Shown here: piece after piece, positions 5,910 through 48,860 of the stretch
Position numbering within the stretch: position 1 is the stretch's first letter
How the letters are laid out: each line of letters opens with the position of its first letter
Assembly (NCBI GenBank): GCA_019057385.1
Contig: JAHQJS010000004.1
Span: 514,118 to 578,117 of the forward strand
DNA: 64,000 bases
Direction: 5' to 3'
From: Candidatus Borrarchaeum weybense
GTDB lineage: Archaea > Asgardarchaeota > Sifarchaeia > Borrarchaeales > Borrarchaeaceae
Translations under genes and position numbers: made by a program
Notes under the pieces: model-generated
What the model was told of the DNA's origin: nothing
What the model saw: the letters and a program-made list of their open reading frames with translations, nothing else
Databases searched by the model: none

Positions 5910-8099
5910 ATGGTCCTTAAAATGAGGTTAAATGCAATTAAGAAGTACCGGATTGGTCTTGTCGTCGTTGTTATCATAAATTTTCTATTGACACTACCAA
6001 GACTGTATGAGGGAATTCCTTCTGGAATCGATTCAAACAGCCATTTATTCAAATGTATCTATATTTTTGAGTTTACAAAAAGGTTCGGTCATTTTCCGAG
6101 TTGGAGCGATGCATGGTACGGTGGCTATCCGATTTCTCTATTTTATCCTCCATTGAGCTACCACATTGCGGTTTTTGTAATGCAATTTGGCGTCCCGCCT
6201 CTCCTCGCTTATAAACTAATTGAAATCATCTTCTACGCATTAGTAACTCCGTTAGCAGTTTATACGTTAACCCAGGGACTTAAATTTAAAAAAGGAGTGG
6301 GGGTTTTTGCAGCGTTATTGTTTAGTGGAATACCTGAAGTTTTATTAAACTTGATGAGGATGGATAGATACCCAAACATCATAGTTATTCCACTCGTTTG
6401 TCTATTCTTTGGAATATTCTTCCGTATGAAAGGAACAAAATATTTTGTATTATCTTACGTTTTGTTAGGCAGCATTTTTCTTACTCACCATCTGACCGCT
6501 GTGTACATCAGCTTGCTTTTTCCAATCTATATTCTTTATCAGAGATTGAATGGAGTCAAAATCTCAAAGAGTTTTCTAGTAAGTTTATCTGTGCTTATTT
6601 GTGCATTTATTATCGCGGCATTTTGGACATTTCCATTTGTGCTAAACTTAAATCAATTACAAGAAAATCCCTTTATTAACAGGTCCATCCTGGGATCACA
6701 TACCCTCTTTGACACATTAACAGATATCAAATCTATTGGACTTGGACAAGTTTTGCTTATGCTTTTCGCAGGCGTGTTTTTAGTGGTTGCGTCATTCAAA
6801 AAGCATCTTGAAGGATTGCTTCAGAGATTTTTTCAAAAAAGTAGTTTCTTTCTTGTATTCTTCTTTTCAATTCTTGCTTTTGTCTCATTCTCCTCCTATA
6901 TAATCTTCCAAGATCTTTTAGACATCATATATTTGCTTTTACTTGGCTTTGTAGTTCTAACTCTGATTTTCCAGATTCCTTCAATCAATGCAACAAAGTT
7001 TTTTGAAAAGAAAGCATCATCGGTAATTTTCTGTCTTATCTGGTTTGTCCTATTTTTTTGGCTAGGACAAGGCGATGAAGCATTATTATATCAATTATTA
7101 CCTTATTGGCAAAAATTGGACCCTGACCGTTTTATCCTGTTTTCTTCGATTCCTTTAGCAATCCTTGGAGGATTCATATTAAATCATATTCTAACTACTT
7201 TTAATTCTGTCAACATCCACTCATTCTATCCTGTCCATACGAAAGAGCGGAGGTTTCTAGTATTCACTGGTTTGATGATATCCCTACTCGCTTTGAATTC
7301 CATTCAATTACAAAGGCATACTACGGATCCCACTTTGTATCGTGAAAATCATGAGTTTCCAAATGAAGTGTTTACTTATTTTGAAAGTCAAAAGGATTCT
7401 GGAAGAATCTTACCGATTCATTGTCCTAACTGGATCTATTCTTTTCCGGTAATTGGTGGTAATAAGTCGATCATTGACGGCTGGTACCCACAAGGACGTT
7501 TATTAACACCAATTCGATCGATAAGATCTTATTCTATTAATTACCTGTCTCTAGACGCAAATAGAACAGAAATTTGGAGTAACCTTATTGAAAATGCTGA
7601 AAATCTTGCTATTGGATGGATACTTCTTGGAGATGCACAGTATGCAGACCTTATTCCACTAAATGAATTCACTTTGGAGTTATACGCTGATGGCATCTTT
7701 ATTTACAAAGCGAAATTCAAAGTCGGCATGATTACTACAAATCCAGATTACTTGATCGATAAATGCGTACTCAGAAGGTATTCCGCTGAAAAATTTGTGA
7801 TTGAGGTTCAGGACCTTACTAGACCTGCAGAAATAATCATCAAGGAGGCATACTTTCCATATTGGACAGCCTATGTCGATGGCATCCCAGTAGATGTTTC
7901 AAAAAATGTAGATGGATTTATTCAAGTGAATATAAATCAAACTGGAGATTTCACTATTGAATTAAAATACGAAGAAAAGTTTGCCTTCGCTGCTGGAGTA
8001 TCTTTTCTAGCCTTGTTTGGAATTCCCATTCTTTTAGAGATCTTTCGAAGAAATGTCTATGCAAAGAATACTCGACTGAGGAAACTTTTTAATTTGTGA
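5910..8099 (+). CDS. Large polytopic membrane protein, GT-C-like (putative glycosyltransferase or oligosaccharide-handling protein)
   Basis: More than 12 predicted TM helices are followed by a soluble C-terminal domain and a terminal TM helix. It sits in a glycosylation gene context. I recognised no definitive motif. Confidence 0.4.
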   Translation: MVLKMRLNAIKKYRIGLVVVVIINFLLTLPRLYEGIPSGIDSNSHLFKCIYIFEFTKRFGHFPSWSDAWYGGYPISLFYPPLSYHIAVFVMQFGVPPLLAYKLIEIIFYALVTPLAVYTLTQGLKFKKGVGVFAALLFSGIPEVLLNLMRMDRYPNIIVIPLVCLFFGIFFRMKGTKYFVLSYVLLGSIFLTHHLTAVYISLLFPIYILYQRLNGVKISKSFLVSLSVLICAFIIAAFWTFPFVLNLNQLQENPFINRSILGSHTLFDTLTDIKSIGLGQVLLMLFAGVFLVVASFKKHLEGLLQRFFQKSSFFLVFFFSILAFVSFSSYIIFQDLLDIIYLLLLGFVVLTLIFQIPSINATKFFEKKASSVIFCLIWFVLFFWLGQGDEALLYQLLPYWQKLDPDRFILFSSIPLAILGGFILNHILTTFNSVNIHSFYPVHTKERRFLVFTGLMISLLALNSIQLQRHTTDPTLYRENHEFPNEVFTYFESQKDSGRILPIHCPNWIYSFPVIGGNKSIIDGWYPQGRLLTPIRSIRSYSINYLSLDANRTEIWSNLIENAENLAIGWILLGDAQYADLIPLNEFTLELYADGIFIYKAKFKVGMITTNPDYLIDKCVLRRYSAEKFVIEVQDLTRPAEIIIKEAYFPYWTAYVDGIPVDVSKNVDGFIQVNINQTGDFTIELKYEEKFAFAAGVSFLALFGIPILLEIFRRNVYAKNTRLRKLFNL

Positions 8100-8153
8100 A
8101 CATATTCTTGTGGTGTATCATTCACTAGAACAATTAAACCATATCCCCCTATT

Positions 8154-8909
8154 ATGCAGAAGCATCATAAGACGGCGAAATCAATGGAAAAAACTAAAAA
8201 TAAAAAGTTAGCCAAAAAAAAGTCACTTTTTATTATGATACCTGCTTATAACGAAGAAAATTCGATCGCTGAAGTCATTCATAGAGCTAATAATATTAAA
8301 ATAAACAATGTTGAAATTATCACTCTTGTCATAAATGATGGCTCTAAAGATAACACTGAACGTTTAGCAGCAGAATCAGGAGCAGATTTAATTGTGTCAC
8401 ATAAAGTTAATAGAGGTCTAGGGGCAGCAATACGGACTGGTGTCGAAAAATCATTAGAAAACGGGGCTGATATGGCTGTTATGTTAGATGCTGACGGTGA
8501 GTATACACCAGAAGAAATTCCAGCATTAATTAAATTGATTTTACGCAATGAAGCTGACTATGTGTTAGGATCACGATTTATGGGATCAATACTTAAAATG
8601 AAAGTCCAAAGACGACTTGGAAACCTGTTTTTGACGGCACTTCTTATGTTATTTACGGGGCGACGAATTTCAGATGGACAAACTGGTCTACGGGCATTTA
8701 GTAAACGTGCTCTACAAAATTTGGAGATTGTGCACGATTATAATTATGCACAAGTACTTACAATCGATTTACTAAGAAAAGGATATCGACTCAAGGAAAT
8801 TCCGATTTCCTATTCTTTCAGAAAAACAGGAAAAAGCTTTGTACGCTTTAAATCATATGCGTTGAAAGTTTTTCCAGCAATGATTAAAGCACGACTCCGG
8901 CGTTTGTGA
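8154..8909 (+). CDS. GT2-family glycosyltransferase (dolichyl-phosphate sugar synthase-like)
   Basis: Motifs IMIPAYNEENSI, NDGSKDNT and DADGEY are the GT-A/GT2 signature. A T6 run follows the stop directly. Confidence 0.85.
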   Translation: MQKHHKTAKSMEKTKNKKLAKKKSLFIMIPAYNEENSIAEVIHRANNIKINNVEIITLVINDGSKDNTERLAAESGADLIVSHKVNRGLGAAIRTGVEKSLENGADMAVMLDADGEYTPEEIPALIKLILRNEADYVLGSRFMGSILKMKVQRRLGNLFLTALLMLFTGRRISDGQTGLRAFSKRALQNLEIVHDYNYAQVLTIDLLRKGYRLKEIPISYSFRKTGKSFVRFKSYALKVFPAMIKARLRRL

Positions 8910-9040
8910 CTTTTTTCGTCCTCATACCTGTCATCCATTCCCGTCGTAGAAGGCGTCAGACCTCTCGGGTTCAGTCTCATGCACAAGAACGTGTTCTCCG
9001 CGTGTTGCGAGGAACATTCCGTCTTGTAGTTGGCATATTG
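8902..9040 (-). ncRNA. Structured RNA element, copy A (unclassified family; omega-RNA-like by similarity to 24596-24862)
   Basis: About 85-90 percent identical to copy C (reverse-oriented at 48731-48860) outside one hairpin, which differs by compensatory changes. The antisense strand would carry T5-T8 runs, so the minus strand is favoured. Confidence 0.65.
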
Positions 9041-9104
9041 TCCAGCAACTATGAAAAGTAAAAGTATTATGCAGATCATTTTTTAAGCTCCATGTTAAAT
9101 ACTT

Positions 9105-9644
9105 CTAAAAGCCTCCTAAGTCATCTATGTAGAGATTAACCATTAAGAGTAAGTGATTTTTTAATGATGAAAAACCGAATTTGAGTGCTTCATTGATCCG
9201 ATTAAGTGTTTGAGACTTATAGATATAGGAATAGAGGGCATAAAGAGAGTATTGGCGTGTTTCGATCTCTTTTTTTAGGGTATCAAAATGAATTTTTGTT
9301 GTTTCAGTTACGCGGTAACGTGAAGGAGCGGAGAACCTGAATTTTCGTGAGATGCTGGAGGAAAATCTATCGTAGTATTGTAGGGTGGAAAGTAAAGGTA
9401 ACTCTCTGTAATCTAATTCGTAATTATGATGATTCTTAACCAATTGATAGATATAGTCATCGGAGATTTTGACCTCTGTATAGATTTTACTTGGATGTCT
9501 TTCAGTATTGACGAAATCGTGGAGAAGCATGGCGATCATCAGTTTTTGCATTGCATCTGAGAAGTTTGTTGGAAGCATTTTTCTGATCTTGATTTTTTTT
9601 GGAGAATAGAGGGGTTTCTTTTGAAGTTTTTCATTTCCTGCCAT
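9105..9644 (-). CDS. Helical protein with an HD-like motif (MLLHDF, NHHNYE); probably the C-terminal part of a frameshift fusion with 9539-9916
   Basis: This ORF overlaps the upstream Cas6-like ORF by 106 nt in the -1 frame. An HD dipeptide in a hydrophobic helix is the only catalytic-looking motif. Confidence 0.45.
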   Translation of the reverse strand: MAGNEKLQKKPLYSPKKIKIRKMLPTNFSDAMQKLMIAMLLHDFVNTERHPSKIYTEVKISDDYIYQLVKNHHNYELDYRELPLLSTLQYYDRFSSSISRKFRFSAPSRYRVTETTKIHFDTLKKEIETRQYSLYALYSYIYKSQTLNRINEALKFGFSSLKNHLLLMVNLYIDDLGGF

Positions 9645-9916
9645 TGTATTTGCCCCATGCCTTCATGGGTGTATCTTCCGATGCTATCTAGGGCAAGTGC
9701 TTCATCAAGTTTATATTCTGGAGCGATGACTTCAATATTGCCATACCAAGCCCTAAAAGTCATAGGTGCTCGTCTTTCACCCTTTGTAAGTTTGCCAAAC
9801 ACTCGTGGGCGTCCTTGAATGGTGACGATACCGATGTTTTTGAGTCCAAACCGATTTCTCTTAGCGACTACAGGTGTTTTAGTTATCCCCAGTAATTTAA
9901 TCCAGTTTTTTGTCAT
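9539..9916 (-). CDS. Cas6-like RAMP fragment (single RRM-like fold with a glycine-rich loop)
   Basis: FRAWYGNIEVIAPEYKLDEALALDSIGRYTHEGMGQIQW resembles the C-terminal Cas6 signature (G-x-G...GMGQ). An AGAGGAA SD lies upstream of the ATG. Confidence 0.5.
   Translation of the reverse strand: MTKNWIKLLGITKTPVVAKRNRFGLKNIGIVTIQGRPRVFGKLTKGERRAPMTFRAWYGNIEVIAPEYKLDEALALDSIGRYTHEGMGQIQWQEMKNFKRNPSILQKKSRSEKCFQQTSQMQCKN
9593..9600 (-). other. A8 homopolymer forming an A_AAA_AAA slippery heptamer at the junction of the two overlapping ORFs
   Basis: The minus strand reads CTC CAA AAA AAA TCA. A -1 slip (or one extra A) gives ...SILQKK-IKIRKMLPTNF..., a 270-aa fusion. Confidence 0.5.
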
Positions 9917-9960
9917 CGTTATTCCTCTTTATGAATAGTATCCCGTTATTAACATTTTAA

Positions 9961-10010
9961 CGGGATATCTAAACGTATCGGTTTTTTTACCTTTTCTTCG
10001 TAAATTGGAT
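9961..10010 (-). promoter_or_regulatory. Promoter block upstream of the Cas6-like ORF (TATA-like GTTTAGATATCCCG, an A-rich tract, then a hairpin ATCCCGTT/AACGGGAT and an SD)
   Basis: About 70 percent identical to the block upstream of the RAMP gene (11023-11092). The TATA-like box lies about 45-55 nt before the ATG at 9916. Confidence 0.5.
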
Positions 10011-10145
10011 ATCACTTTTATCGTCCCTTGGCTGTCATCCATCCCCATCAATACTAGAGGCGTGGGACCTCTTAGATGGTTCAGTCTCATACGCAAGAAC
10101 GTGCTCCTCACAATGTGAGAGAAGCATACCGTCATGGATGAGAAA
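10011..10145 (-). ncRNA. Structured RNA element, copy B (same family as copies A and C)
   Basis: Shares the blocks CACGUUCUUG.G.AUGAGACUGAAC, AAGAGGUC...CCUCU and GGAUGGAUGACAG with copies A and C. It lies between the RAMP gene and the Cas6-like ORF. Confidence 0.65.
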
Positions 10146-10193
10146 AAAGAAGAGTAGAAGAATATTGCAGAGTCTTCGATCATTTATCTCCCT

Positions 10194-10979
10194 TCAAGCG
10201 TCTAATGCGTCTAAAATTGTCCTCCAATCCTCAATTTCATCAAATTCAATTGATTCCGCTTCGATTTCTTCATTGACCTTATAGATACCATTGTTTCTTT
10301 TTACGGTCTTGATAACTTCAATTTTTAGAAGATCAAAGTCCAAAAGTTTAACCTGTCCATAGCCTGCGTTCTTACCGCCTCCAAGCGTTTCGATGTATAG
10401 CAATGACTCCATGAGGAATTTAATCTCTTCTTTAGTCAGAAGAGTTACATCAATAGAGAATGTGAAATAGCCACTGAAATAACTTTCACGAAAATCTTGG
10501 ATAGGTATACCCTCATAACTTAACGCTATCCTATTTTCGCTCAAGATATGAACTCTTTGCACCGCTACATCAGTATTATATTCTTTATGAGAGATAGAAG
10601 TAATAGGATCAGCATAGACAGAAATCCGGGATTCTTCGCGAAAACTACCAAAGATTCTTCGGAGAATACAGGGAGTATCACACGCACCAAATGGATGAAA
10701 CCCGTTAGGAATGAGTTTAGTGCCGTCTTTGAGTTCGGTTTTTTCACTGGTATGACAGACTTCGATACCACAATCTTGAGCCAGCGACATGGCGGCATGT
10801 CTTAGCATGCCACGCAAACCTTTGATATAATATACTTTGGTATTGAAGGTCTTTTCTCCATTTATATAAGGAATTTCACCGAGAAGCAACATGGTAGAAT
10901 TTTTCTGTATGGAGGCATTCAGGGGTTTGGCAATAGGGGTAAAGGCTCGAACCACAAGTTGTTTTTTTGTTTTTTTCAT
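10194..10979 (-). CDS. RAMP superfamily protein, type III-like Cas7 (Csm3/Cmr4-like)
   Basis: IKGLRGMLRHAA (the G-x-lR motif after beta1), the Cys pair plus CILRRIFGSF (Csm3-like C..C..FGS) and LGGGKNAGYGQVKL (the C-terminal glycine-rich loop). Confidence 0.65.
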   Translation of the reverse strand: MKKTKKQLVVRAFTPIAKPLNASIQKNSTMLLLGEIPYINGEKTFNTKVYYIKGLRGMLRHAAMSLAQDCGIEVCHTSEKTELKDGTKLIPNGFHPFGACDTPCILRRIFGSFREESRISVYADPITSISHKEYNTDVAVQRVHILSENRIALSYEGIPIQDFRESYFSGYFTFSIDVTLLTKEEIKFLMESLLYIETLGGGKNAGYGQVKLLDFDLLKIEVIKTVKRNNGIYKVNEEIEAESIEFDEIEDWRTILDALDA

Positions 10980-11022
10980 CTTTCTAACCTCGTTTAAATC
11001 TCAATAATAACTTTTGCAACTA

Positions 11023-11092
11023 GATATATAAACCTATCGCTTTTTCTACCTTTTTTTAGTAAAATGGATGATTTTATACGCTTCTTTTTGAA
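11023..11092 (-). promoter_or_regulatory. Promoter block upstream of the RAMP gene (TATA box TTTATATATC, A-rich tract), paralogous to 9961-10030
   Basis: The minus-strand GGTTTATATATCTAG lies about 45 nt before the ATG at 10979, and a GAGGT SD lies 7 nt before the ATG. The block aligns with the 3' tail of RNA copy B. Confidence 0.55.
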
Positions 11093-11535
11093 AATAAAGC
11101 GTTTTAAAGACGTTTTTTTGTATATTACTGGAAACATACGAAAAACCTTTGTTAATTTAGGTAAAACCTTTTTTGTATTAATAATGTCTTAAGTAAAAAG
11201 GAAAAATATTTGCAAAAATGGAGATATTCTGGAAGAATAAAAAGTGCAATAAGAATGGTCTATACTTGTTAAGTGTCATCAATTGTGCTTGAAATTATTT
11301 ATGCTTTATTTTAAAATTTCTTATAATCGCGCATTAGGTCGCTCAAAAACACCTTTCTCCCCCACTCATAGTACTTGGGGCGTTCTGTGTTACTATTGCA
11401 GGGTTCAAATCGTGTGCATCGGCTGTCCTTTAGCGCAACTGGCATATATGCAGTCTTACATCCAATTACATTTCCAGTCTGACAAGTTCTCTTGAAGAAG
11501 CCGTGTCTTTTATAGGGAGGACACTTACTTTTCTC

Positions 11536-14500
11536 TTAAGAACTACCTAGGAGTTTTCGGCGTTTCATAACTAAATTCACTAGACCTGGTACGAAATCTT
11601 CATTTATTTGGACTATTGAGCCAAGTGATGTGTCCTTTTCTCGAAAAATACCTGCAGAGCAGATTCTTGCCCATGCATTACGATTCTCCTTATACGGACG
11701 AAGCTTGGCCGAGAAAATCTCTTTGTTGGGAATATTCCCCTGAATATCAATAAACTCTTCCAAGACATCATATAGCACTTCTTTAATAGGGCCACGGATT
11801 CCTCCCCGGCCAAAAATGGTTAATTCATCGGGAATATCGCTTGAACCTGCAATTAGCAATGCCAATTTCTCTGAATCGGATACTTCAGGAATTTTATCGA
11901 ATCTAAACTGCCAATCTGCGAATATCCTCATTATATAAGGCTTTTTTGCCAATTTTAATTGTGTTTCTGACATCTTCGAGGAATCTAAGCCATATTTCAA
12001 AGCGGCGGTCTTTAACTCATCGTTTGTAAACTCATTTAAAATTAAACTTGCTTTATCAATTATTGAATTCGAAGGCTTTCCTCGGAAAATATAGCTGTTT
12101 AAATCATGCTTTACACGATTAATATATTCATTAGCGCTCCAGTCAGCGGTTCTACAAGATATAATAGTAGGTACCCCTTCGGTGGCAAGACGCATTACAG
12201 TGTCTTTTAGCAGAGGTAAGATGAATTCTGGTCTTTCCACTTCATCTATGCCATCAATTATAACAAGTAGATTTGCATTTTTTTCCTTTAATGTGCTAAA
12301 CATCTGTTTCAATACATTAAATGCATCGAGCATGACAATAGATCCAAAAAACGCTTGTACAGTCTTGGTTACGTTCTTTCTAGCGCTGAAAAAAAGAGGA
12401 ACAATTTGTCCTTTAACGGTGATAGTTTTCATGAGTTCATTTGCCTTATGTGCAAGAAGCCATGTCTTCCCGATGCCCATGTCCGAAAGTAAAAGGAAAA
12501 TTTTACGCTCCTCGCCGATTGGTAGTGTAGCAATTTCAATAAATTCATCAATTGCCTTTTCGGCATCAACGCGAGGTTCATATTTTTCATCACTATAGGC
12601 GATTTCGAATAAACTCGAAAATGAAACTGTGTTGAGAAAACATTTTGATAGAAAAATAATATTTTCGGTGTTTAGATCCTTAGATATATTTTTAGATAGT
12701 ATACTAACTACACGATCAAGATTTTTTTCAAGATTCTTGATATTTGTACGTACATCATCTAATCGTCTCTTAGTATCTTCTGTATTCGATTCCAATAGAT
12801 TTATAATGACATTAATACTTTCTTCGAGTTCTTGCTTTACATCTAAAGAAATATTACTTATTTCATCTTCCATCCATGCTCTTAGTGTTTCAATTGCTTC
12901 GAAAGGTTTTTTTGAAGCGAAATCAATTGCTTTATTGAATCCATTTATGATCGGACGAAGAGAAGTATCGATAATCAATTTTAGTTTGTCCTCATCAATG
13001 TTAGCATTTATTTCCTCAAGTTTCTTATTTATTAGATCTTCGATTCCTCTGAAGGATGCTTTCTTCATTGCTTCCTCAATATTTTCGGTAATCGATGTTT
13101 CATCAACCTTGATACCAAAAGAAGAAATTTTATTCGATATCAACTTTCCTATATACCCTGCAGCCGGAGGACAAACCATGCCAACGAGCATAGAACCCAC
13201 AGCAGGCAAACATTTGAGGCCTATCTCGCCAAGTGTTTTTCCTGCCTTCTTAAGTATATCTCTTATCTTCTTGAGACGTCCTTCATCTTTTTCAGGTTGA
13301 TAACTCTCTGAAATCGCATCAGAATCAACTTCTTGATCGTTTGTCAGAATAGGAGGCGTAATTGGAGTTTGTGGTTGAGTTGTTCGAGTTTCTATTTCTT
13401 TTTGTTCTTCAACAATTATTTTCTTAGTTTTTTCAATTTCCTCCATTTCTATTGTCTCTGTTTGCTCTAGCGTTTCACTTGTAAGAAGCGCTTGTGCCTC
13501 TTTTGCTTTGTAGATGGCCCCTGGTTCACCTTTTATTGTGTATTTGATCTCTACCATTCGATCTGGTTGGATATTCTTGATGGACCATTCTAAGACGGTG
13601 AAGCTCTTGCCTTCGACCAGTCTCGGTCGTTGATCAGTCAGCTCTGGCGAACTTGAAACCAGTATAAAGCCTTCAGGCAAGATATCGGCGATGGTGATGT
13701 CCTGAAGGGTAACTTCGTCATCAGGCTTCAGTTTATTATGATAGTAGATAGTAATAGCATATTCACCTTCTGTATCACCTTCTTGGATCGATTTTCCAAC
13801 ACGAGCTTTACGCCAAACATGCTCCTTTACAGTAAGTTTATCTTCTGCAATGGCACGAAGTTCTTCATGTTCGGAAAATGGTTCTAAAACATTACCTACT
13901 ACTGAAACTGGTACAACAAGTTCGACTCCAGGTTCCGGTTCTACTGCTTGAAGGAGGTAATCTATTTTAACACAATCCTTTGGATTAATAGCTTTAATTG
14001 CAACCAGTTTATTAATATTTGAGAGGGATAAAATCAATTTTCTTTCCTTTGATAAATCTCTCCCCCCTTTCTCAGTAATTTTTACTGCTCCAGTAATATC
14101 TTGTTGATAATCTGATTCTCGTATAAGACTTGCTTTGATAGAGTCGATATTAAAACCTGGAGGGATCGTTTCATAAAAAGTAAGATCATTTAAAGGTGCA
14201 GAACCAGTATTACATGCCTTTAAGGTAGTCTTAATAGGATTTTCTTCGATTGCGTTAATTCTTTTTACTTCATATGATTTTTCTACTTTTATATCTGCTA
14301 CTTTAACTAAACCACCATATTGTACTACAGAGCCAGTGAGTTCTCTCAGAAAATTGTTTTTAACTGAAAAGTCAACTTTTTGTCCAAAGCTAGGAAATTC
14401 CATAATTGGATCTTCTTTTGGATCAGGGAACACGAAAGTCTTGGTCCATTTATTCTCGGTGTCAGGACTAAGAGTTACGTAAAGGCTATCCTCACTGATT

Positions 14501-15549
14501 ACTAAATGTTCTCGTCGATCTGATCTTTTTCTAAATATAGTTTCTTCGGCAGTCTGTCGATAGACTTCCACTTCGCGGAGCATTATTTCAAACGTGGAAA
14601 GGTTTTCAAATTCAATCGCACAGTTCCAGCGACCCGGGACGTTGTCAATCTCATCTTTATCGATCCAAGTAACATTTTTGGTGTAGCCTTCTAGACCAAG
14701 AAAAATAATATCTGACATCGTTGTATCTGGTGTTGCGAAACTTATAGAAATTTTGCCTGTATTTAGTGGGACTACTGTTTCTGCTTTTAAAAAAACTCCA
14801 AATGTTATTGATTTTGATTCATTAGGAGCTAAACTAAATCCAGACCAAAAGATCTTGTCAGTCTCTCTTTTATAATCTCCATCTGCTCCCTTTAAGTCCA
14901 TAACTTCCCTGAAAGCTTCAGGCAATTCTTTAACAAAAATAATGTTTTCTAAATTCGTTTTTGATTTATTAATAACCATAATCGTAACTCTGACCGCAGT
15001 TTCTTTATTTCTTATTAGTATTTTTGGCATAGTCTCTGATTCTGGTTCAGTATCTATGTATTCCTCAATTATCAGAGGTGATTCAATATCTTTTGAAACA
15101 GGAGTTCTCAAAGAATAATTTTTAAAGAATAATTCGCTGGGTCTAAGTTCTTGGATGTTTATATTGCACAGACCCTCCCTAGCTGATAAATTGGTCTTTG
15201 AAATATTTTCCCAGTAACTATCGAGATTCCAAACGCTATCTCGTTCGTTTGGATTGTAAAAACCAACACTTCCTGATGTTTTAATAGTTTCTGTTCCATC
15301 TGCTTGAAAAACAGCATCTATTCTTTCAGAGTTGATAACAAGAATTCGTTTATTATTTTTAGCGCCAACTATTTTCCAGGCTTTAGGTATATCTTTCTCA
15401 GGCATATGTTCCAAGTCTAGTTTTTTAAGATCGACAACTACCCTTCCCTTTGGTATCTCGAATAAAATTGGACCTTCAAGTATTTTTGGAACATAATTTG
15501 CCATTTCGGCATTTCCTCTTCTATTTTTCCTGACTATTTGTTTAGACAA
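11536..15549 (-). CDS. Giant STAND-type NTPase with N-terminal beta-sandwich (DUF11/CARDB-like) repeats, a coiled-coil/hydrophobic linker and a C-terminal NACHT-like P-loop domain
   Basis: Walker A LLLSDMGIGKTWL and Walker B NLLVIIDGIDEV. Repeated segments such as NTGSAPLNDLTFYETIPPGF and ITIADILPEGF are typical of DUF11-like Ig folds. Confidence 0.7.
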   Translation of the reverse strand: MSKQIVRKNRRGNAEMANYVPKILEGPILFEIPKGRVVVDLKKLDLEHMPEKDIPKAWKIVGAKNNKRILVINSERIDAVFQADGTETIKTSGSVGFYNPNERDSVWNLDSYWENISKTNLSAREGLCNINIQELRPSELFFKNYSLRTPVSKDIESPLIIEEYIDTEPESETMPKILIRNKETAVRVTIMVINKSKTNLENIIFVKELPEAFREVMDLKGADGDYKRETDKIFWSGFSLAPNESKSITFGVFLKAETVVPLNTGKISISFATPDTTMSDIIFLGLEGYTKNVTWIDKDEIDNVPGRWNCAIEFENLSTFEIMLREVEVYRQTAEETIFRKRSDRREHLVISEDSLYVTLSPDTENKWTKTFVFPDPKEDPIMEFPSFGQKVDFSVKNNFLRELTGSVVQYGGLVKVADIKVEKSYEVKRINAIEENPIKTTLKACNTGSAPLNDLTFYETIPPGFNIDSIKASLIRESDYQQDITGAVKITEKGGRDLSKERKLILSLSNINKLVAIKAINPKDCVKIDYLLQAVEPEPGVELVVPVSVVGNVLEPFSEHEELRAIAEDKLTVKEHVWRKARVGKSIQEGDTEGEYAITIYYHNKLKPDDEVTLQDITIADILPEGFILVSSSPELTDQRPRLVEGKSFTVLEWSIKNIQPDRMVEIKYTIKGEPGAIYKAKEAQALLTSETLEQTETIEMEEIEKTKKIIVEEQKEIETRTTQPQTPITPPILTNDQEVDSDAISESYQPEKDEGRLKKIRDILKKAGKTLGEIGLKCLPAVGSMLVGMVCPPAAGYIGKLISNKISSFGIKVDETSITENIEEAMKKASFRGIEDLINKKLEEINANIDEDKLKLIIDTSLRPIINGFNKAIDFASKKPFEAIETLRAWMEDEISNISLDVKQELEESINVIINLLESNTEDTKRRLDDVRTNIKNLEKNLDRVVSILSKNISKDLNTENIIFLSKCFLNTVSFSSLFEIAYSDEKYEPRVDAEKAIDEFIEIATLPIGEERKIFLLLSDMGIGKTWLLAHKANELMKTITVKGQIVPLFFSARKNVTKTVQAFFGSIVMLDAFNVLKQMFSTLKEKNANLLVIIDGIDEVERPEFILPLLKDTVMRLATEGVPTIISCRTADWSANEYINRVKHDLNSYIFRGKPSNSIIDKASLILNEFTNDELKTAALKYGLDSSKMSETQLKLAKKPYIMRIFADWQFRFDKIPEVSDSEKLALLIAGSSDIPDELTIFGRGGIRGPIKEVLYDVLEEFIDIQGNIPNKEIFSAKLRPYKENRNAWARICSAGIFREKDTSLGSIVQINEDFVPGLVNLVMKRRKLLGSS

Positions 15550-15622
15550 CTAAATAAATTTACTTATAAAAAACACAAAAAAAGAATTAATTCACTAAAC
15601 CGATAAGGAAATCTTAACTAAA

Positions 15623-17356
15623 TCACTCAACAATTCTAGATTTCCTAAGAAATCCAATTAAAACTCCTCCTATGATGAAACAAGCGAGTAACAGAAAAAG
15701 GACCAGGTACACAGCGAACTGTGGTGGAACAACATAAAACAGATACAGAAGGAATCCACAACTGAATAATCCGTTAATTATGCCAGTCTTCAATCCTGCA
15801 TTTTTTAAGTTCAAGGATGTTTTCCTAAGACTAATAAATCCACTCAGCACTCCTGCAATGAGGAAACAAGAAATAATTCGAACGATTTGTAAAATTATCT
15901 CAGAAGGCATAGGAATAACAAATAAAATGACTACTAATATCACAATTCCTGATATCCCACCGTTAACCATGTCTGTGGTTGATGGTCGTTGAATGCTGAG
16001 ATCGGGATAGTCTTTTAAATCCTCTCCAATGAGAAATTTCAAACGATCCATTACCATCCATTTAGAGGTTACAAAATCAAAATAAATTCCAATGGCAGCA
16101 ATAATCGAAGCAATTAAAAGGAAGTGTGGCAATAAATCTACCCCAAAGTAAACAATGAATAATCTTGATGAAAGATAAGTTACTAAAAGAACGCCGAGAC
16201 CCAATACAATAGGATGGAATATTCTCTGTAAACGAGAGTATTTTCTGAAGAAATCCAGATCTTTATTTTTTACAGCCCAATCTTGCTTGACATGAATATA
16301 AGAAAGTGATGGAACGGCGCCTACAAGGAATGCCACGGTAAGAATAATTGCTCTTAAGACAAACAAGACATCGTGAGAAGGAATATTACTTGGCATTTGT
16401 TGTGTTAAAAAGTCTAAAAAGGGCACAACCATCGGCTGTAGCATCGCTAATATAAAAGCAACAAGATATGGGAGAAATATTATAAAACAGCGATTCCAGT
16501 TCTCCCACTCATTACGAATTCCAAGGAAAGCGATCATGAAAGGAATGATTATTAGAATCATAAAAAGAAGTTGAGAGCTCTCAAAATAATTTAGAAATCG
16601 AAGATTCATCCCAACAATAATAGCATTGGCGACTAACGAAACTACTAACCAACTAGTCTGAATCGTTTGGTCGCTTTTTAGCCAATTTCTCCAAAAATGC
16701 TTTTCAATTTGTCCTTTGTAGCGCATTGTGTCTTTCAATGCACCAATAAAAGCCCTTGGTGTCTCGATAGTTCCTAGTAGAACTAAGAAATTGAATACAG
16801 AGAGAAAAAGTATCACTGCGGAGAATATTTTATCCCCTCCAATGGCAAGCCATACCGTTATCAAAATGAAGGTGTCAAAAGCCCGCTCGTACGAATAATA
16901 CTCCTTATATTCTAGAAAATCAAGTTTTCTTTTAAAATATGTTGAATATAGTTTAGTTGCACCCAACCATCCCATGAACCCCATAAACATTAATCCAAAA
17001 GAGAAAATAGCCGGGAGAAACTCATTATTTAGCGCATGTATTAACAACCTTTCGGAAGCATTCGCAAAGATACTTGTAGAGAAAAACACAAATCCGCAAA
17101 TTACGGAAATAAGTAGTCGTGATCTCAACTCTTCATTTCGAAGTACATCTTCTGGATTCTTCTCGAAAACCATTTTTGGAAGATGAAATTGGTAAATACC
17201 TATTGTCAAAATAAGACTTGCAAGTAGAAAGGTATATTCAAAGTTGAATAGACTTAAAACGACAGATAAAACACTTAGCAGGATAGTTATAAGCGAAACA
17301 AGAAGATTCTTAATATTCAGTTCTTTTGTTTTACTCTTAGAATCAATACTCCCCAT
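15623..17356 (-). CDS. Polytopic integral membrane protein (about 14 TM helices), function unknown; co-oriented just upstream of the NACHT gene
   Basis: Hydrophobic helices run throughout. I recognised no catalytic motif. Confidence 0.6.
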   Translation of the reverse strand: MGSIDSKSKTKELNIKNLLVSLITILLSVLSVVLSLFNFEYTFLLASLILTIGIYQFHLPKMVFEKNPEDVLRNEELRSRLLISVICGFVFFSTSIFANASERLLIHALNNEFLPAIFSFGLMFMGFMGWLGATKLYSTYFKRKLDFLEYKEYYSYERAFDTFILITVWLAIGGDKIFSAVILFLSVFNFLVLLGTIETPRAFIGALKDTMRYKGQIEKHFWRNWLKSDQTIQTSWLVVSLVANAIIVGMNLRFLNYFESSQLLFMILIIIPFMIAFLGIRNEWENWNRCFIIFLPYLVAFILAMLQPMVVPFLDFLTQQMPSNIPSHDVLFVLRAIILTVAFLVGAVPSLSYIHVKQDWAVKNKDLDFFRKYSRLQRIFHPIVLGLGVLLVTYLSSRLFIVYFGVDLLPHFLLIASIIAAIGIYFDFVTSKWMVMDRLKFLIGEDLKDYPDLSIQRPSTTDMVNGGISGIVILVVILFVIPMPSEIILQIVRIISCFLIAGVLSGFISLRKTSLNLKNAGLKTGIINGLFSCGFLLYLFYVVPPQFAVYLVLFLLLACFIIGGVLIGFLRKSRIVE

Positions 17357-17803
17357 CCCGTAATCTCCATTTGAAATATTTTTCTTAAGTTAGCTTCCAC
17401 TGCGTTGTTGTTGGAACAATATTCAAGAAAAATGTTGCTGTTACCAAAAAGTAACTAACAAATATAACGGAATATCTAATAATATCCTTAATCTCTAATT
17501 CTTCCAAGATAATCCCCCGTTTACGAAAGATTAGGACGTCTTTATGTTTACATATATAAAATCATTCTGCTTGTTATAATTTTCGTGAAACAGCGTTTTA
17601 TTAAATAGTAGAGTTCACGAAACTAATTACAAAACATCCTATGATTAAAATATTGGATCTTTTTATGATATGAAGAGGATCTCAGGAAAATAATCAGAGA
17701 ACTCATGGTAGGAATTTATAAAAAAGGATAGATTTGAGTTTTAAAACAGGACTGATAGTAAAGTTATTTGTACTAATTTCACTCCAGTTCTCTTATCAAT
17801 TCA

Positions 17804-18028
17804 TTATGTTGGTGGTATGTCCCTTATATCTTCGATTTTCCAAGTTGCGTAGTTAAAAGCGAAGAGTAATGTTAGGAAACTACTGATTGTAAATCCGAAA
17901 CAAAGTCCAAGAAAAGCAGAACTTATGTCTAAACTAAGTGTAAAGGCATAAGCGAGAACAATCGAAATAATTGAGAAAGAGAAGAAGAACGTTATTAGTA
18001 TAATCATCATACTAATAACTCTACTCAT
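17804..18028 (-). CDS. Small membrane protein (2 TM helices), hypothetical
   Basis: The ORF contains two clear hydrophobic helices. It is isolated in an AT-rich spacer. Confidence 0.3.
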   Translation of the reverse strand: MSRVISMMIILITFFFSFSIISIVLAYAFTLSLDISSAFLGLCFGFTISSFLTLLFAFNYATWKIEDIRDIPPT

Positions 18029-18190
18029 GCTTCGAATTTGGCTCCGTTCACGATCTCTACCCTGCTTTTCATAATTTCTCTCAAAAACTTCTCGAACGTC
18101 GTATGCATTTTTTAGAAGGAAAGTAGCAAAAATGCCTCCAATACCGAATAAAGAATCAACTAAACAAAAGGTATTCTACAGTTGAGATAA

Positions 18191-19135
18191 ATGAGTTTAC
18201 GAAAAGATATTTACCCTAATGCTAAGCAAAGAGATTTAGATCGTATCCTCCCTCAGTTAGTAACTGAGATTCTCAGAGCCTTTCAGTCTTGTTTTACATC
18301 AGAACAAGACCTCATACAGTTCATCAATAGACTTCCGAGCAGAGAAATTGTAGAACTCTTTCTTGATTCGGGAAGGTTTTATGCCGTCAGTAAAAGTGTC
18401 ATCACAGAGCCCTTTGTGAAGTTAATAATGATCTTTTCGATGATTGAGCGATTAACTTCAGCAGAAATACCATATACTGAATTTAAAAATTGGATACGTG
18501 AGAATGAAGTGCTCAGAGCAGCAGTTGAAGAAAATCCTGACATATCAGACTTCCATCTTTCATCTCTCAAGCAACTCATAGATAGTCTAAGAGAGAAATA
18601 TAATGAGATCTACGGCTTCGTAAGAAACATACTCTCATATTTCACGGAATATATTGCTCTTAGACATCAGATAATGATCATCGCCTCAATACATGTGAAA
18701 GACACAGAGATTTTAAGAAGATATCCTGATCAGGTAACTGGGGTACAGCCATATTCTGTGACTATTTCAGATTTTGCCACTGAACATAATCTTGAAACAT
18801 CAAAGGGATATATGCCTGTTTGCTATGACTGGAGACAATGCTGTGTAGATGTTAATACATGCTGTTGGCGTTCCAAAAAAACGTGCAGATTGTGGATAGA
18901 TGACGAAGAGCGCATCAAGAGGCTTAAAACAACAATAAAGTTATTGTATGACTTTAGAAGTGTATTTGTTCATCGTGCAGAACTGCCACCTTTTAGTGAA
19001 CATCCAACATTTGGAATGTATAAACATAATAAGAAATGGAGAGATTGCCTTATTCTGTTAAAGTCATCAGAATTTGAAGCAATCTTTGAGGAATCATTTG
19101 TCGAATATTTTAAAAGCAAGATCGACCTCGAATAA
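18191..19135 (+). CDS. Hypothetical Cys-rich protein with a possible HEPN-like Rx4H motif
   Basis: LYDFRSVFVHRAE contains R-x4-H. There is a Cys cluster CYDWRQCCVDVNTCCWRSKKTC. The protein looks otherwise helical. Confidence 0.35.
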   Translation: MSLRKDIYPNAKQRDLDRILPQLVTEILRAFQSCFTSEQDLIQFINRLPSREIVELFLDSGRFYAVSKSVITEPFVKLIMIFSMIERLTSAEIPYTEFKNWIRENEVLRAAVEENPDISDFHLSSLKQLIDSLREKYNEIYGFVRNILSYFTEYIALRHQIMIIASIHVKDTEILRRYPDQVTGVQPYSVTISDFATEHNLETSKGYMPVCYDWRQCCVDVNTCCWRSKKTCRLWIDDEERIKRLKTTIKLLYDFRSVFVHRAELPPFSEHPTFGMYKHNKKWRDCLILLKSSEFEAIFEESFVEYFKSKIDLE

Positions 19136-22186: not shown

Positions 22187-24325
22187 TTACGTATAGTATA
22201 TTGGCTGCGTTATATCGTCGCTACTTACACATGGTTGTACATTCAACCTGTTTGCCATATTCACCGCGTCCTCTGGAGTGCCATAATAGATATAAAATCC
22301 GTATATCGCCTCTGGACGTGCGTTGTCTTCTTTAAAGTAAATATTGTTGCTATCTAAAATAACTGATGTATATCTAGTTGTCTGAACGCTTATTAAACTA
22401 ACATTGTTTCCTAGATAAATCCAGCCATTAGATAAAAATAATTGACATTCTTTCGCCATAAAATCGCGTAAATTGAATATTCGTCCATTTGACATTGGTG
22501 AATATGCTATGGCGTCATCTGTTACGTTGAAATATACCCTATTTGCAACGATGTCGGATGTATTTAACTCTAGTGTTACGTAATATAATTTATCATTATA
22601 TTTGGTAACGTCTAATGTATAATTCTTAAATGAACATGTAACGTTGATTGGTAGTTCTCCTGCTGTTCCCTCAGGCGTCGTCGGATTATAGTATAATGTA
22701 TTTGTGCGTGTATCAATTACAACTGGTTGAGTAATATCTAACGATTGTAATAATGAATCTACAATCTTCTCCGATTCTGTAATAACATAGTTGCTGTAAT
22801 CTATCGAATATTCTACTTCACACTCTCTTGGAGTCCATCCTGTTGAATCGGATACCTCAGCAAGAAGTAGTATCTTCCATAATTTATTTATATCTTCCTG
22901 TATCGATGTATTAACGCCAGAAATGTTTGACACGTACTTAAATGTCGCCTCAGCCGATAGTAATGATGTTCTGGCTTGATACCGTAATGTCATTATTTCG
23001 ACATCTCGTTCATATCTATTGCGCTCTTCTCCCGACCATAAATAATTGCCGCCTTGAGTGACACATGGAATTTCTGGAATCTGTTTAACTGGTATATTTC
23101 TTTCTAAGCATACATCAACTAATTGCGAAATCGTTAAATATTGCGAATTGCGGCTATCGTAATCTCGTAATATATCTTCATACCTATGTTGCTTCTCTTT
23201 GACGTATGTGAAATCGTTCTTATTTTGATATGTATTAACTTGCTCTCCATCGTCGTAATACAACCACTTATATCCGAACGGTTCCGTAGTGCTATTATCG
23301 TCTATTTTAACGTCCCTGTTGAAAATTATGTAGGAATCGTTATTTGATTGGCAAAGTCCGTAATGTTTAAATGTATCGTTTGCATCTATATTATAATAAT
23401 TATTATAAGTAGCCGTTATCATTACCAAAGTTGTATATCCATAATCTTTCATAATTTCTTTTAATGCGGGTGAATACTGCCACTCCTGACAGCCAAATAT
23501 AGGACTTCGCGTAAGATTATATTTTTTTAATATTTCATCTGATATTTCAATTGATTTCCTTAATTCTAATTCGGGGTACGCAATAAAAAGTTGATCGGAA
23601 TAATGCGTAACAACTAACTCCAACTGACCCCGATCATGTAGTTTTTTAAACAACTCGAAAACATCGGGGTATTTTTCAGCCATGAGTTCTATACCTAAAC
23701 TTTGTATTTCGAATGTGAACGCGTATTTGGGATATCTCTCATACATCAAAAGTAAGTTTCTGATAGATCCGTTAACGATACGTTCTTCTGATATAGGATC
23801 GCCCGCTCTAAACTGCGGGTTAAAATGAAAATATGATACATAAAATTCTGCCTTATTTAATGGTACAGAATGGGTAGATGTTGTATGTGCGATAATGCTT
23901 ACTACTTTTTTATATACATTAGAAACGCCATATACCTCATAGTATAGCACATATATATTTTCGCCAGCGTTCTCAACAATTGTTTTGCGTGCAACCTCTG
24001 ATTTACCCCAAGAAGTTAGTATAACTATCTGAGTATCTACAGGCTTTGGTGTTGCGTTTGATTCGTCAACAATTTTTAATGTTACATGTTCTGGCTTATC
24101 TGATACAGAATGTAGTCTAATGTTTAATGTAATATCATCCCCAACTGTAACATAATCATCTACATCAGTTGTAAAATCGTCGATGACTATTGAATTTGAG
24201 GTATTAACGCCAACCATTTTAAATGCTAACATTTGCGTAGTGAATACGCTAGAAAGGATTACAAACGCGAGAATGCACAGAGGAATAACCGTAGGCGGTA
24301 TTATCCTATATGGCGCACAATGCAT
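22187..24325 (-). CDS. Secreted or membrane-anchored carbohydrate-active protein, GH57-like
   Basis: It has an N-terminal signal/TM segment. YFHFNPQF, RGQLELVVTHYSDQLF and FGCQEWQYSPALKEIMKDYGY resemble GH57 barrel motifs. Confidence 0.4.
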   Translation of the reverse strand: MHCAPYRIIPPTVIPLCILAFVILSSVFTTQMLAFKMVGVNTSNSIVIDDFTTDVDDYVTVGDDITLNIRLHSVSDKPEHVTLKIVDESNATPKPVDTQIVILTSWGKSEVARKTIVENAGENIYVLYYEVYGVSNVYKKVVSIIAHTTSTHSVPLNKAEFYVSYFHFNPQFRAGDPISEERIVNGSIRNLLLMYERYPKYAFTFEIQSLGIELMAEKYPDVFELFKKLHDRGQLELVVTHYSDQLFIAYPELELRKSIEISDEILKKYNLTRSPIFGCQEWQYSPALKEIMKDYGYTTLVMITATYNNYYNIDANDTFKHYGLCQSNNDSYIIFNRDVKIDDNSTTEPFGYKWLYYDDGEQVNTYQNKNDFTYVKEKQHRYEDILRDYDSRNSQYLTISQLVDVCLERNIPVKQIPEIPCVTQGGNYLWSGEERNRYERDVEIMTLRYQARTSLLSAEATFKYVSNISGVNTSIQEDINKLWKILLLAEVSDSTGWTPRECEVEYSIDYSNYVITESEKIVDSLLQSLDITQPVVIDTRTNTLYYNPTTPEGTAGELPINVTCSFKNYTLDVTKYNDKLYYVTLELNTSDIVANRVYFNVTDDAIAYSPMSNGRIFNLRDFMAKECQLFLSNGWIYLGNNVSLISVQTTRYTSVILDSNNIYFKEDNARPEAIYGFYIYYGTPEDAVNMANRLNVQPCVSSDDITQPIYYT

Positions 24326-24595: not shown

Positions 24596-24862
24596 CTATC
24601 TCCTCCTTTAACCTGCGTTACAGGAGGTCGGTTCTCCTCGCCAAAGTTATCAGTCAGTACTCTACGATGATCACTGAGCGTTTCCTCTCTGTTTAAACCA
24701 CCGTTTACAGAGCAAGGGACTAGAGAAGCATCCCTTGGTGTGTTCTTTAACTCTCCTGATAACGTAGATACCGTCATACACTATATGACCTCTCTTAGGC
24801 TAATCAACTAATTGCTCTCAGGTCTCACGGAACAAGCCCCTACCCTTTAGGGTGGTGGGGTA
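24596..24862 (-). ncRNA. Structured leader in the canonical omega-RNA (HEARO-like) position upstream of the IscB remnant
   Basis: GC content is locally higher and there is no credible ORF. Hairpins are dense: GUCAUA/UAUGAC, CAAGGGA/UCCCUUG, CUCUGU/ACAGAG, AGGAG/CUCCU and CCUG/CAGG. The leader ends at the SD of the PLMP ORF. Confidence 0.6.
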
Positions 24863-24869
24863 ATTGACT

Positions 24870-25637
24870 CTATGTTCGTTTCTTTTTGTAAGAGCGCCTA
24901 TATTTTTCGAAGTCAACAGAATCGTATACTTCTGCCATTTTGAAGAATATTGGGAAGAATTTTGCAACTTCAATGTCTTTGCTGATAAAGAAGATTGCGT
25001 TCAAACTGGATTGAGCCTCTTCATGATGTATAGCGAACCGCTTAATGTGGTCTCTGTATTTCAATAGAATTGCCCTTAATTGCTGCCCTTCTTTTGCAAG
25101 AAAGAGAGATCTAGCTGAGTACACCTCTGAACTTTTAACTAAAAATGCAGCATCAAATTTTTTGTCGATTTTAACAGTTTCAAGGTCAACTATTTCCTTG
25201 AACAAATCCTTTATGAGATGTTCTTCTTTTGGAATTACTTCTATCGTGATTGTTGCAGTCTTGCGAAGCGTTCCCATAAAAGCAAGTTTGTCTTGATCTT
25301 TTTGAAAATGATTAATTATTGGATGTAGTAGATTTTCACGATTCAATAAAACTAAGGCGACAGTAATATCTGACATGTATTTCTTTGGCACAGCATTGAT
25401 TCGAAAGCCCGACCCTCCTGCGTCTTCGTATTCCGCCTTTCCTTTCACATACTTTGGAACTACTTCTTCAATCTTTTTTGTGTATTTTTTCTTCAACCTA
25501 CGATTCTTTATAAACCCCACTATTATTGAGACCATAAATATTACGATTAGAGCACCAAAAATGATAATTTGGACGGTTAGAGGTATTGCCTGTATTATCT
25601 GTGCTAAAGCATCAAAAATTCCTTGTATCAGTATCAC
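24870..25637 (-). CDS. Hypothetical membrane-anchored protein (one N-terminal TM region)
   Basis: The ORF has a hydrophobic N-terminus. I recognised no motif. Confidence 0.5.
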   Translation of the reverse strand: MILIQGIFDALAQIIQAIPLTVQIIIFGALIVIFMVSIIVGFIKNRRLKKKYTKKIEEVVPKYVKGKAEYEDAGGSGFRINAVPKKYMSDITVALVLLNRENLLHPIINHFQKDQDKLAFMGTLRKTATITIEVIPKEEHLIKDLFKEIVDLETVKIDKKFDAAFLVKSSEVYSARSLFLAKEGQQLRAILLKYRDHIKRFAIHHEEAQSSLNAIFFISKDIEVAKFFPIFFKMAEVYDSVDFEKYRRSYKKKRT

Positions 25638-48730: not shown

Positions 48731-48860
48731 CTTGAACAAGGCGGAATGCTTCTCTTGTAGCGAGGGGAGCACGTTCTTGTGCATGAGACTGAACACGAGA
48801 GGTCTGACGCCTTCTAAGACGGGAATGGATGACAGGCAGGGGACGAAAAAGGTCAAAAAC
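48731..48860 (+). ncRNA. Structured RNA element, copy C (stand-alone locus, same family as copies A and B)
   Basis: It is the reverse complement of copy A apart from the compensatory hairpin. TATA-like AAAATATATAAG lies at 48677-48688 upstream, and a hairpin plus T7 lies downstream at 48905-48934. Confidence 0.7.

Follow-up and report, generated by a model that had tools for sequence, protein, structure and literature searches.

The two overlapping open reading frames (ORFs) on the minus strand of the window (the whole stretch of 64,000 nucleotides that was analysed) are the halves of one 270-aa protein, a RAMP-type RRM followed by an HD domain with the motif LLHDF. This had been proposed in the preliminary description, and homologues, invariant residues, a structure model and fold matches all agree with it. 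That description took a run of eight adenines (A8), read as a slippery heptamer, for the link between the halves. Judged by comparison with related sequences, the frame change sits at a run of five adenines (A5) at 9627-9631, not at A8. The locus is probably an ordinary RAMP-HD gene with a real, recent deletion of one nucleotide, and the window copy a recently inactivated paralogue. One A would have been lost in one of nine paralogues, turning A6 into A5 at 9627-9631, and ribosomes would then be thrown into the wrong frame, with a stop 29 codons on. We infer that the deletion is no artefact of sequencing and that the copy has lost its function.

The features of the locus are given in Table 1. 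ORF1 and ORF2 share the stretch 9539-9644, and the overlap of 106 nt noticed at first sight is borne out by their coordinates. ORF1 follows the family frame up to the A5 run and continues with 29 out-of-frame codons and a TGA stop; this tail carries SEKCFQQTSQMQCK. In the zero frame, that of ORF1, the A8 run reads CTC CAA AAA AAA TCA and lies in the X_XXY_YYZ phase as A_AAA_AAA. Both frames are open across the heptamer, and an extra A or a -1 slip there leads into ATC AAG ATC and to a product of 270 aa, so that the phase and the translation had both been read correctly. The slip product carries NFKRNPSILQKKIK, and its trans-frame junction is ...NFKRNPSILQKKIKIR.... An 8-base run is expected to fall into heptamer phase by chance in two of the three frames.

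Table 1. Features of the RAMP-HD gene and its cassette, with positions in the window.
Feature	Position	Strand	Description
Cas7-like RAMP gene, upstream partner	10194-10979	minus	Intact; Pfam RAMPs PF03787, E 2.4e-8, above cut-off
RNA element, upstream copy	10010-10136	minus	Between Cas7-like and RAMP-HD genes; nhmmer E 6e-34
ORF1	9539-9916	minus	125 aa; N-terminal RAMP (Cas5-like RRM) domain, then out-of-frame tail, TGA
A5 run	9627-9631	minus	True frame-change site by sequence comparison; one A fewer than family A6 (Lys-Lys)
ORF2	9105-9644	minus	179 aa; 5 non-family codons, family linker KLQKKPLYSPKKIKIRK, HD domain
A8 run	9593-9600	minus	Proposed slippery heptamer; family frame CCA AAA AAA ATC (Pro-Lys-Lys-Ile)
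RNA element, downstream copy	8906-9026	minus	Ends cassette against stop of convergent GT2 gene

When the DNA of the nine paralogues is aligned (MAFFT), the only 1-nt gap of the window copy is in the A5 run (ATG-AAAAAC), which lies 27 nt upstream of A8. Four paralogues have A6 at the corresponding position, and interrupted sequences also occur there among the paralogues, so the run is not conserved. Orthologues read ...GMGQIQWQEMKKLQKKPLYSPKKIKIRK... at the junction (QEMKKLQKK). Two of them, P0080 from NCBI and P0079 from Logan, differ from the frame-restored window product in 2 residues each (268/270 identical) and read ...QEMKKLQKKPLY.... ORF1 is identical to both through QEMK and unrelated beyond it (NFKRNPSILQKK...), and ORF2 is in register with the orthologues from KLQKKPLY on, the native linker containing KLQKKPLYSPK. 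For the closest orthologues, A6 is deduced from the Lys-Lys residues together with the paralogue DNA. Because the sole gap of the window copy falls at this point, four paralogues have A6 and the orthologues have Lys-Lys, the lesion is placed as a change from A6 to A5 at 9627-9631. An A added at A5 gives a product with 263/270 identity to the homologue P0001, an identical linker and 471.9 bits on the family HMM. With an A added at A8, the identity is 254/270 and the score 465.0 bits, and all nine extra mismatches fall in the linker. Nothing in the family corresponds to the zero-frame sequence from A5 to A8, and ATG AAA AAC at the A5 site does not form a canonical heptamer. A8 is also found in the intact paralogue at C4:1003435-1004235 and in L014, a locus of a sister strain. 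The heptamer is thus not what joins the two ORFs, since relatives have an undivided ORF where A8 simply encodes Lys-Lys in frame, and the position that differs by 1 nt is upstream. Going by these alignments, A8 has come into slippery phase in ORF1 only through the upstream deletion, and the length difference that is informative at this locus is A5 versus A6 at 9627-9631, not A8 versus A9. An intron or another insertion at the junction was rejected, as the paralogue alignment is collinear except for one base. A scan of genome contigs for the exact A5/A6 junction pattern gave chance matches in unrelated bacteria and nothing else.

Relatives of the gene are intact. A search with ORF2 returned 75 homologues, among them the 270-aa P0001 with 97% identity, and 58 of the 75 are single proteins of 246-312 aa. 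Those with a named source are from Candidatus Borrarchaeum and Promethearchaeota (Asgard archaea). The remaining 17 are shorter and represent internal-start calls or contig-edge fragments, with no recurrent split between RAMP and HD parts. The organism's own genome has nine full-length copies of the gene, one divergent copy and one fragment. Eight of the nine paralogues are in a single open frame of 268-282 aa, and the window copy alone is in two frames. One frame is also seen in the full-length copies of four metagenome loci (L009-L012) and in the five full-length copies of the relatives G002 and G004. The two-ORF layout was sought in homologues, paralogues, metagenome loci and relatives, and was seen in none besides the window copy. 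It had been asked whether orthologues encode one fused ORF, and the answer from 58/75 homologues and 8/9 paralogues is that they do. The 90% cluster of the window protein includes 270-aa proteins. The exact frameshifted product of ORF1 (P0083, 125 aa) is on record from both NCBI and Logan read assemblies, and window-identical parts of ORF2 (P0076 and P0077) are likewise recorded from Logan assemblies. Since all three proteins are also found in the Logan read assemblies, the A5 allele is not confined to a single assembly. In the NCBI annotation, the locus consists of two CDS, P0083 (125 aa) and P0077 (157 aa).

P0001 was modelled with AlphaFold, using 39 homologues; the mean pLDDT is 83.5 and falls to 58 in the linker (residues 101-110). 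Residues 1-100 form a RAMP-type RRM with a glycine-rich loop, EGMGQ, and the family has one such RRM of ~100 aa. Its fold matches with VIA-align are to CRISPR RAMPs (Z 5-7.5), where the C-terminal RRMs of Cas6, Csm4/Cmr3-type proteins and type IV Csf proteins are tied at Z 5.7-7.5. The matches to Cas6 (3qjj, Z 7.5; 5yi6, Z 6.7) are to its C-terminal RRM and no better than those to Cas5 or Cas7. With Foldseek against the PDB, the top matches are CRISPR RAMPs alone, and these are weak (E about 1e-2). Neither ORF1 nor ORF2 gave anything significant in Pfam or NCBIfam, and the family profile had no match among PDB sequences. Five of 39 members match the PADLOC profile Cas5_IIId (best E 8.8e-6) and one matches type IV Cas5, with P0001 itself matching none; a Cas6 profile match was sought in Pfam, NCBIfam and PADLOC and there was none. 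The early label "Cas6-like" was right in pointing to a RAMP-type RRM and too specific beyond this, since the folds of Cas5, Cas6 and Cas7 are tied and the only profile matches are to Cas5 (III-D and type IV). From these profiles, "Cas5-like" appears to be the better founded name, because all profile matches are to Cas5.

The C-terminal part, residues 120-270, matches the HD domain of Csm1/Cas10 (6ifk_A, Z 8.2 with 137 residues aligned; 6mua_A, Z 6.5). The match is seen with VIA-align and not with Foldseek, and sequence profiles of Pfam, NCBIfam and the PDB gave no HD match for the family. H133, D134, H141, H163, H164 and H255 do not vary in the family, D183 is shared by at least 90% of the sequences, and ORF2 keeps them all. 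As in Csm1/Cas10, the HD motif and histidines are invariant, and Csm1 residues 2-216 can be superposed on the C-terminal 150. The RAMP-HD protein differs in that it lacks a Palm/cyclase and has its HD domain fused to a RAMP of ~100 residues. According to the model, the gene would encode a protein of ~270 aa in which a short basic linker joins an N-terminal RAMP domain, Cas5-like, to a C-terminal predicted HD nuclease domain of the Cas10 type.

The gene is part of a cassette, in the order Cas7 / RNA / RAMP-HD / RNA, which occurs nine times in the genome in addition to one divergent copy and solo copies of the RNA. A Cas7-like copy adjoins 9 of the 10 full-length RAMP-HD genes in the genome, nothing was matched upstream of the fragment on C7, and one Cas7-like copy without a partner is found at C3:64.9 kb. 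The Cas7-like gene also has weak NCBIfam matches to gRAMP, Csm3 and Csx7. The flanking RNA elements are direct copies of ~125 nt and are structured: across 27 copies, hairpin P1 covaries strongly, with up to 10 sequences in which both sides of a single pair are changed, and conservation extends to a long-range stem and an inner hairpin. Up to E 10, Rfam has no family for this RNA, its 6 matches all being far below gathering scores. A solo copy of the element is found at 48737-48856 on the plus strand (nhmmer E 1.8e-31), 38 kb from the cassette and with no RAMP genes beside it. A CRISPR array was sought in 8000-18500 and in the whole window, and none was present.

ARAMP (Asgard RAMP), the form in Asgard archaea, and HRAMP are CRISPR-like modules that derive from type III and lack an array (Makarova et al. 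2020, summarised in PMC8730458 and PMC12669027), and the cassette fits ARAMP as it is described in these summaries. The host is an Asgard archaeon, a diverged Cas7-like protein stands beside a RAMP that is probably Cas5-like, the window is free of CRISPR arrays, and the module includes a predicted nuclease domain. A distinct form of Cas1 is expected in most loci of this kind, and giant Cas1-domain ORFs lie next to two of the nine cassettes. It differs in that the predicted nuclease here is a Cas10-type HD fused to the RAMP, whereas HNH and PD-(D/E)xK are the nucleases named as most common in the review literature, and in that the window copy is frameshifted and has no Cas1 neighbour. Judging from its context and the literature, an intact RAMP-HD protein would have the Cas7-like protein next to it and the structured RNAs on either side as its partners in an ARAMP module, a type III derivative that has no array. 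The Cas1-domain ORFs, of 1347 and 1367 aa, adjoin the cassettes at C4:339-343 kb and C5:118-122 kb, and their matches to PF01867 are at C4:342074-342907 (L018; E 6.5e-9) and C5:121343-122176 (L017; E 2.8e-10). A canonical Cas1 is encoded elsewhere, at C4:153602-154474 (E 4e-80). Upstream of the window cassette is a protein of 1337 aa (11536-15549, minus strand) with DUF11 repeats and an adaptor-mu-like region in its N-terminal half and an NTPase of the NACHT/NPHP3 type in its C-terminal half. Two paralogues of its first 690 aa, with 58-60% identity, are encoded elsewhere on C4. Homology of this neighbour to the giant Cas1-containing ORFs was rejected on comparison.

A homopolymer indel was among the options first listed for this locus, and it is the one that the data support, at the A5/A6 run and not at A8. 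The indel may, however, have arisen in the sequencing. In that case, the organism has A6 at 9627-9631 and an intact 270-aa gene, and one A was dropped during homopolymer calling or polishing. This seems unlikely to us, and it is still the most serious competitor of a real deletion. The whole difference is a single homopolymer base, near-identical intact orthologues exist (268/270), and there is no secondary lesion in either ORF. The assembly has 8 contigs, the largest of 1.3 Mb, which suggests long-read data, prone to such errors. On the other hand, the exact frameshifted product of ORF1 is also present in a Logan read assembly, A5/A6 is a short run, and no comparable break is found in the eight other paralogues, in all 11 Cas7-like copies or in the rest of the 64-kb window. 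The 397 overlapping same-strand frame pairs counted genome-wide came without a usable control and were dropped as a measure of assembly quality.

The fate of the same locus in the sister strain also argues against an error, as it is decaying there. L014 (JGI Ga0209427_10005581) has 96.6-97% DNA identity to the window and the same flanking GT2 gene. Its positions 1-2100 are syntenic with window 8800-9623, and the RAMP-HD gene is kept only downstream of window 9623, so that the locus lacks the gene's 5' third as well as the upstream RNA and the Cas7 gene; the downstream copy of the RNA element is retained. L014 has a second lesion of its own, a deletion from A7 to A6 at window 9270-9276. The truncation together with this separate A-run deletion implies that the locus decays in the lineage, and several fragments with stop codons are found in the related genomes G004 and G005. 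In the window copy, all invariant residues are retained and neither half has a secondary lesion, so any inactivation would be very recent. The L014 breakpoint is 4 nt from the A5 run. Upstream of it are two short ORFs (84 and 64 aa) that by eye resemble RelE/ParE toxin-antitoxin genes.

Programmed -1 frameshifting at A_AAA_AAN is known from fucA1 of Saccharolobus solfataricus, from bacterial dnaX and from IS transposases. In true programmed cases, the split and the heptamer are conserved in orthologues, and the trans-frame product is the family protein. The preliminary description suggested recoding of this kind at A8, setting a ratio of short and long products. Here, -1 slippage or transcriptional insertion of an A, whether programmed or a leaky rescue, would yield some RAMP-HD beside a RAMP-only product. 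The locus resembles the known cases in having a correctly phased A-rich heptamer between overlapping ORFs, with both frames open, and a fusion of family length: the slip product has 270 aa and 465 bits on the family HMM, with 9 residues changed in a linker of low model confidence. It differs from them in that orthologues are unsplit, the frame change is elsewhere, nine residues of the fusion are wrong and a stimulator is lacking. Neither orthologues nor paralogues have the two-ORF layout, the zero-frame extension from A5 to A8 lacks a family counterpart, and A8 pre-exists as in-frame coding in intact copies. A stimulatory RNA structure was sought in the 93 nt after A8, where the predicted fold has -8.4 kcal/mol (z +0.96), a value that 176 of 200 shuffles reach or surpass. 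Runs of A8/T8 are not enriched in the window either (14 observed versus 29 +/- 7.5 in dinucleotide-preserving shuffles). Recoding at A8 is therefore very unlikely. A conserved, selected frameshift signal is rejected at the level of sequence, because the layout is unshared, the extension has no family counterpart, there is no downstream structure and the A5 site is non-canonical.

A milder version would combine both runs. If the A5 deletion is real, A8 might return a small fraction of ribosomes or transcripts to the HD frame, and the locus would then make mostly RAMP-only protein and a low dose of nearly native RAMP-HD, altered in no more than 9 residues of a flexible linker. We regard this as having just as slight a chance as recoding in general. 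If true, slippage at A8 would be an accidental, recently arisen frameshift that tunes dosage in an ARAMP module.

Phase variation, by which changes in A-runs (A6/A5 here, A7/A6 in the sister strain) would switch copies of the cassette on and off, is slightly less probable again. Both alleles occur among near-identical strains, and L014 has a second, independent A-run deletion. However, contingency tracts are typically far longer than 5-7 bases, paralogues do not conserve the run and have interrupted sequences there, and the irreversible truncation of L014 fits decay and not switching. Least probable of all is a functional fission into separate RAMP and HD polypeptides that still assemble: NCBI annotates two CDS (P0083 and P0077), and the TGA of ORF1 overlaps an ATG in the ORF2 frame (CTGATG, ~9539-9543) that could allow re-initiation, but there is no natural split form among the 75 homologues, ORF1 ends in 29 nonsense codons, and a re-initiated product would begin inside the predicted HD-motif helix (residues 121-135).

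With a recent one-nucleotide deletion as the preferred reading, the locus should not be counted as a case of archaeal programmed recoding, and its "canonical slippery site" is ordinary Lys-Lys coding that is exposed by a change upstream. The two CDS in NCBI would be better annotated as one frameshifted gene or as a pseudogene. Whether deletion or error, the event is an ordinary one in a gene of an already known kind. The gene family is more interesting than the frameshift, and the eight intact paralogues, such as that at C4:904162-904962, are the better subjects for study.

Two further observations were made in the window. An Rfam match to HEARO, the omega RNA of the IscB type, is found at 24627-24868 on the minus strand (127.7 bits, E 4e-26), directly after a 255-aa ORF without a Pfam match (24870-25637, minus strand) and before a GH57-like gene (22187-24325). 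Just after a TATA-like TTTAGATAT, in the interval from the upstream RNA element to the start of ORF1, is a perfect 9-bp inverted repeat, ATCCCGTTA ... TAACGGGAT (9945-9975, minus strand). The two closest paralogous cassettes share the conserved stretch up to its first arm, and the repeat may be an operator or a leader hairpin.
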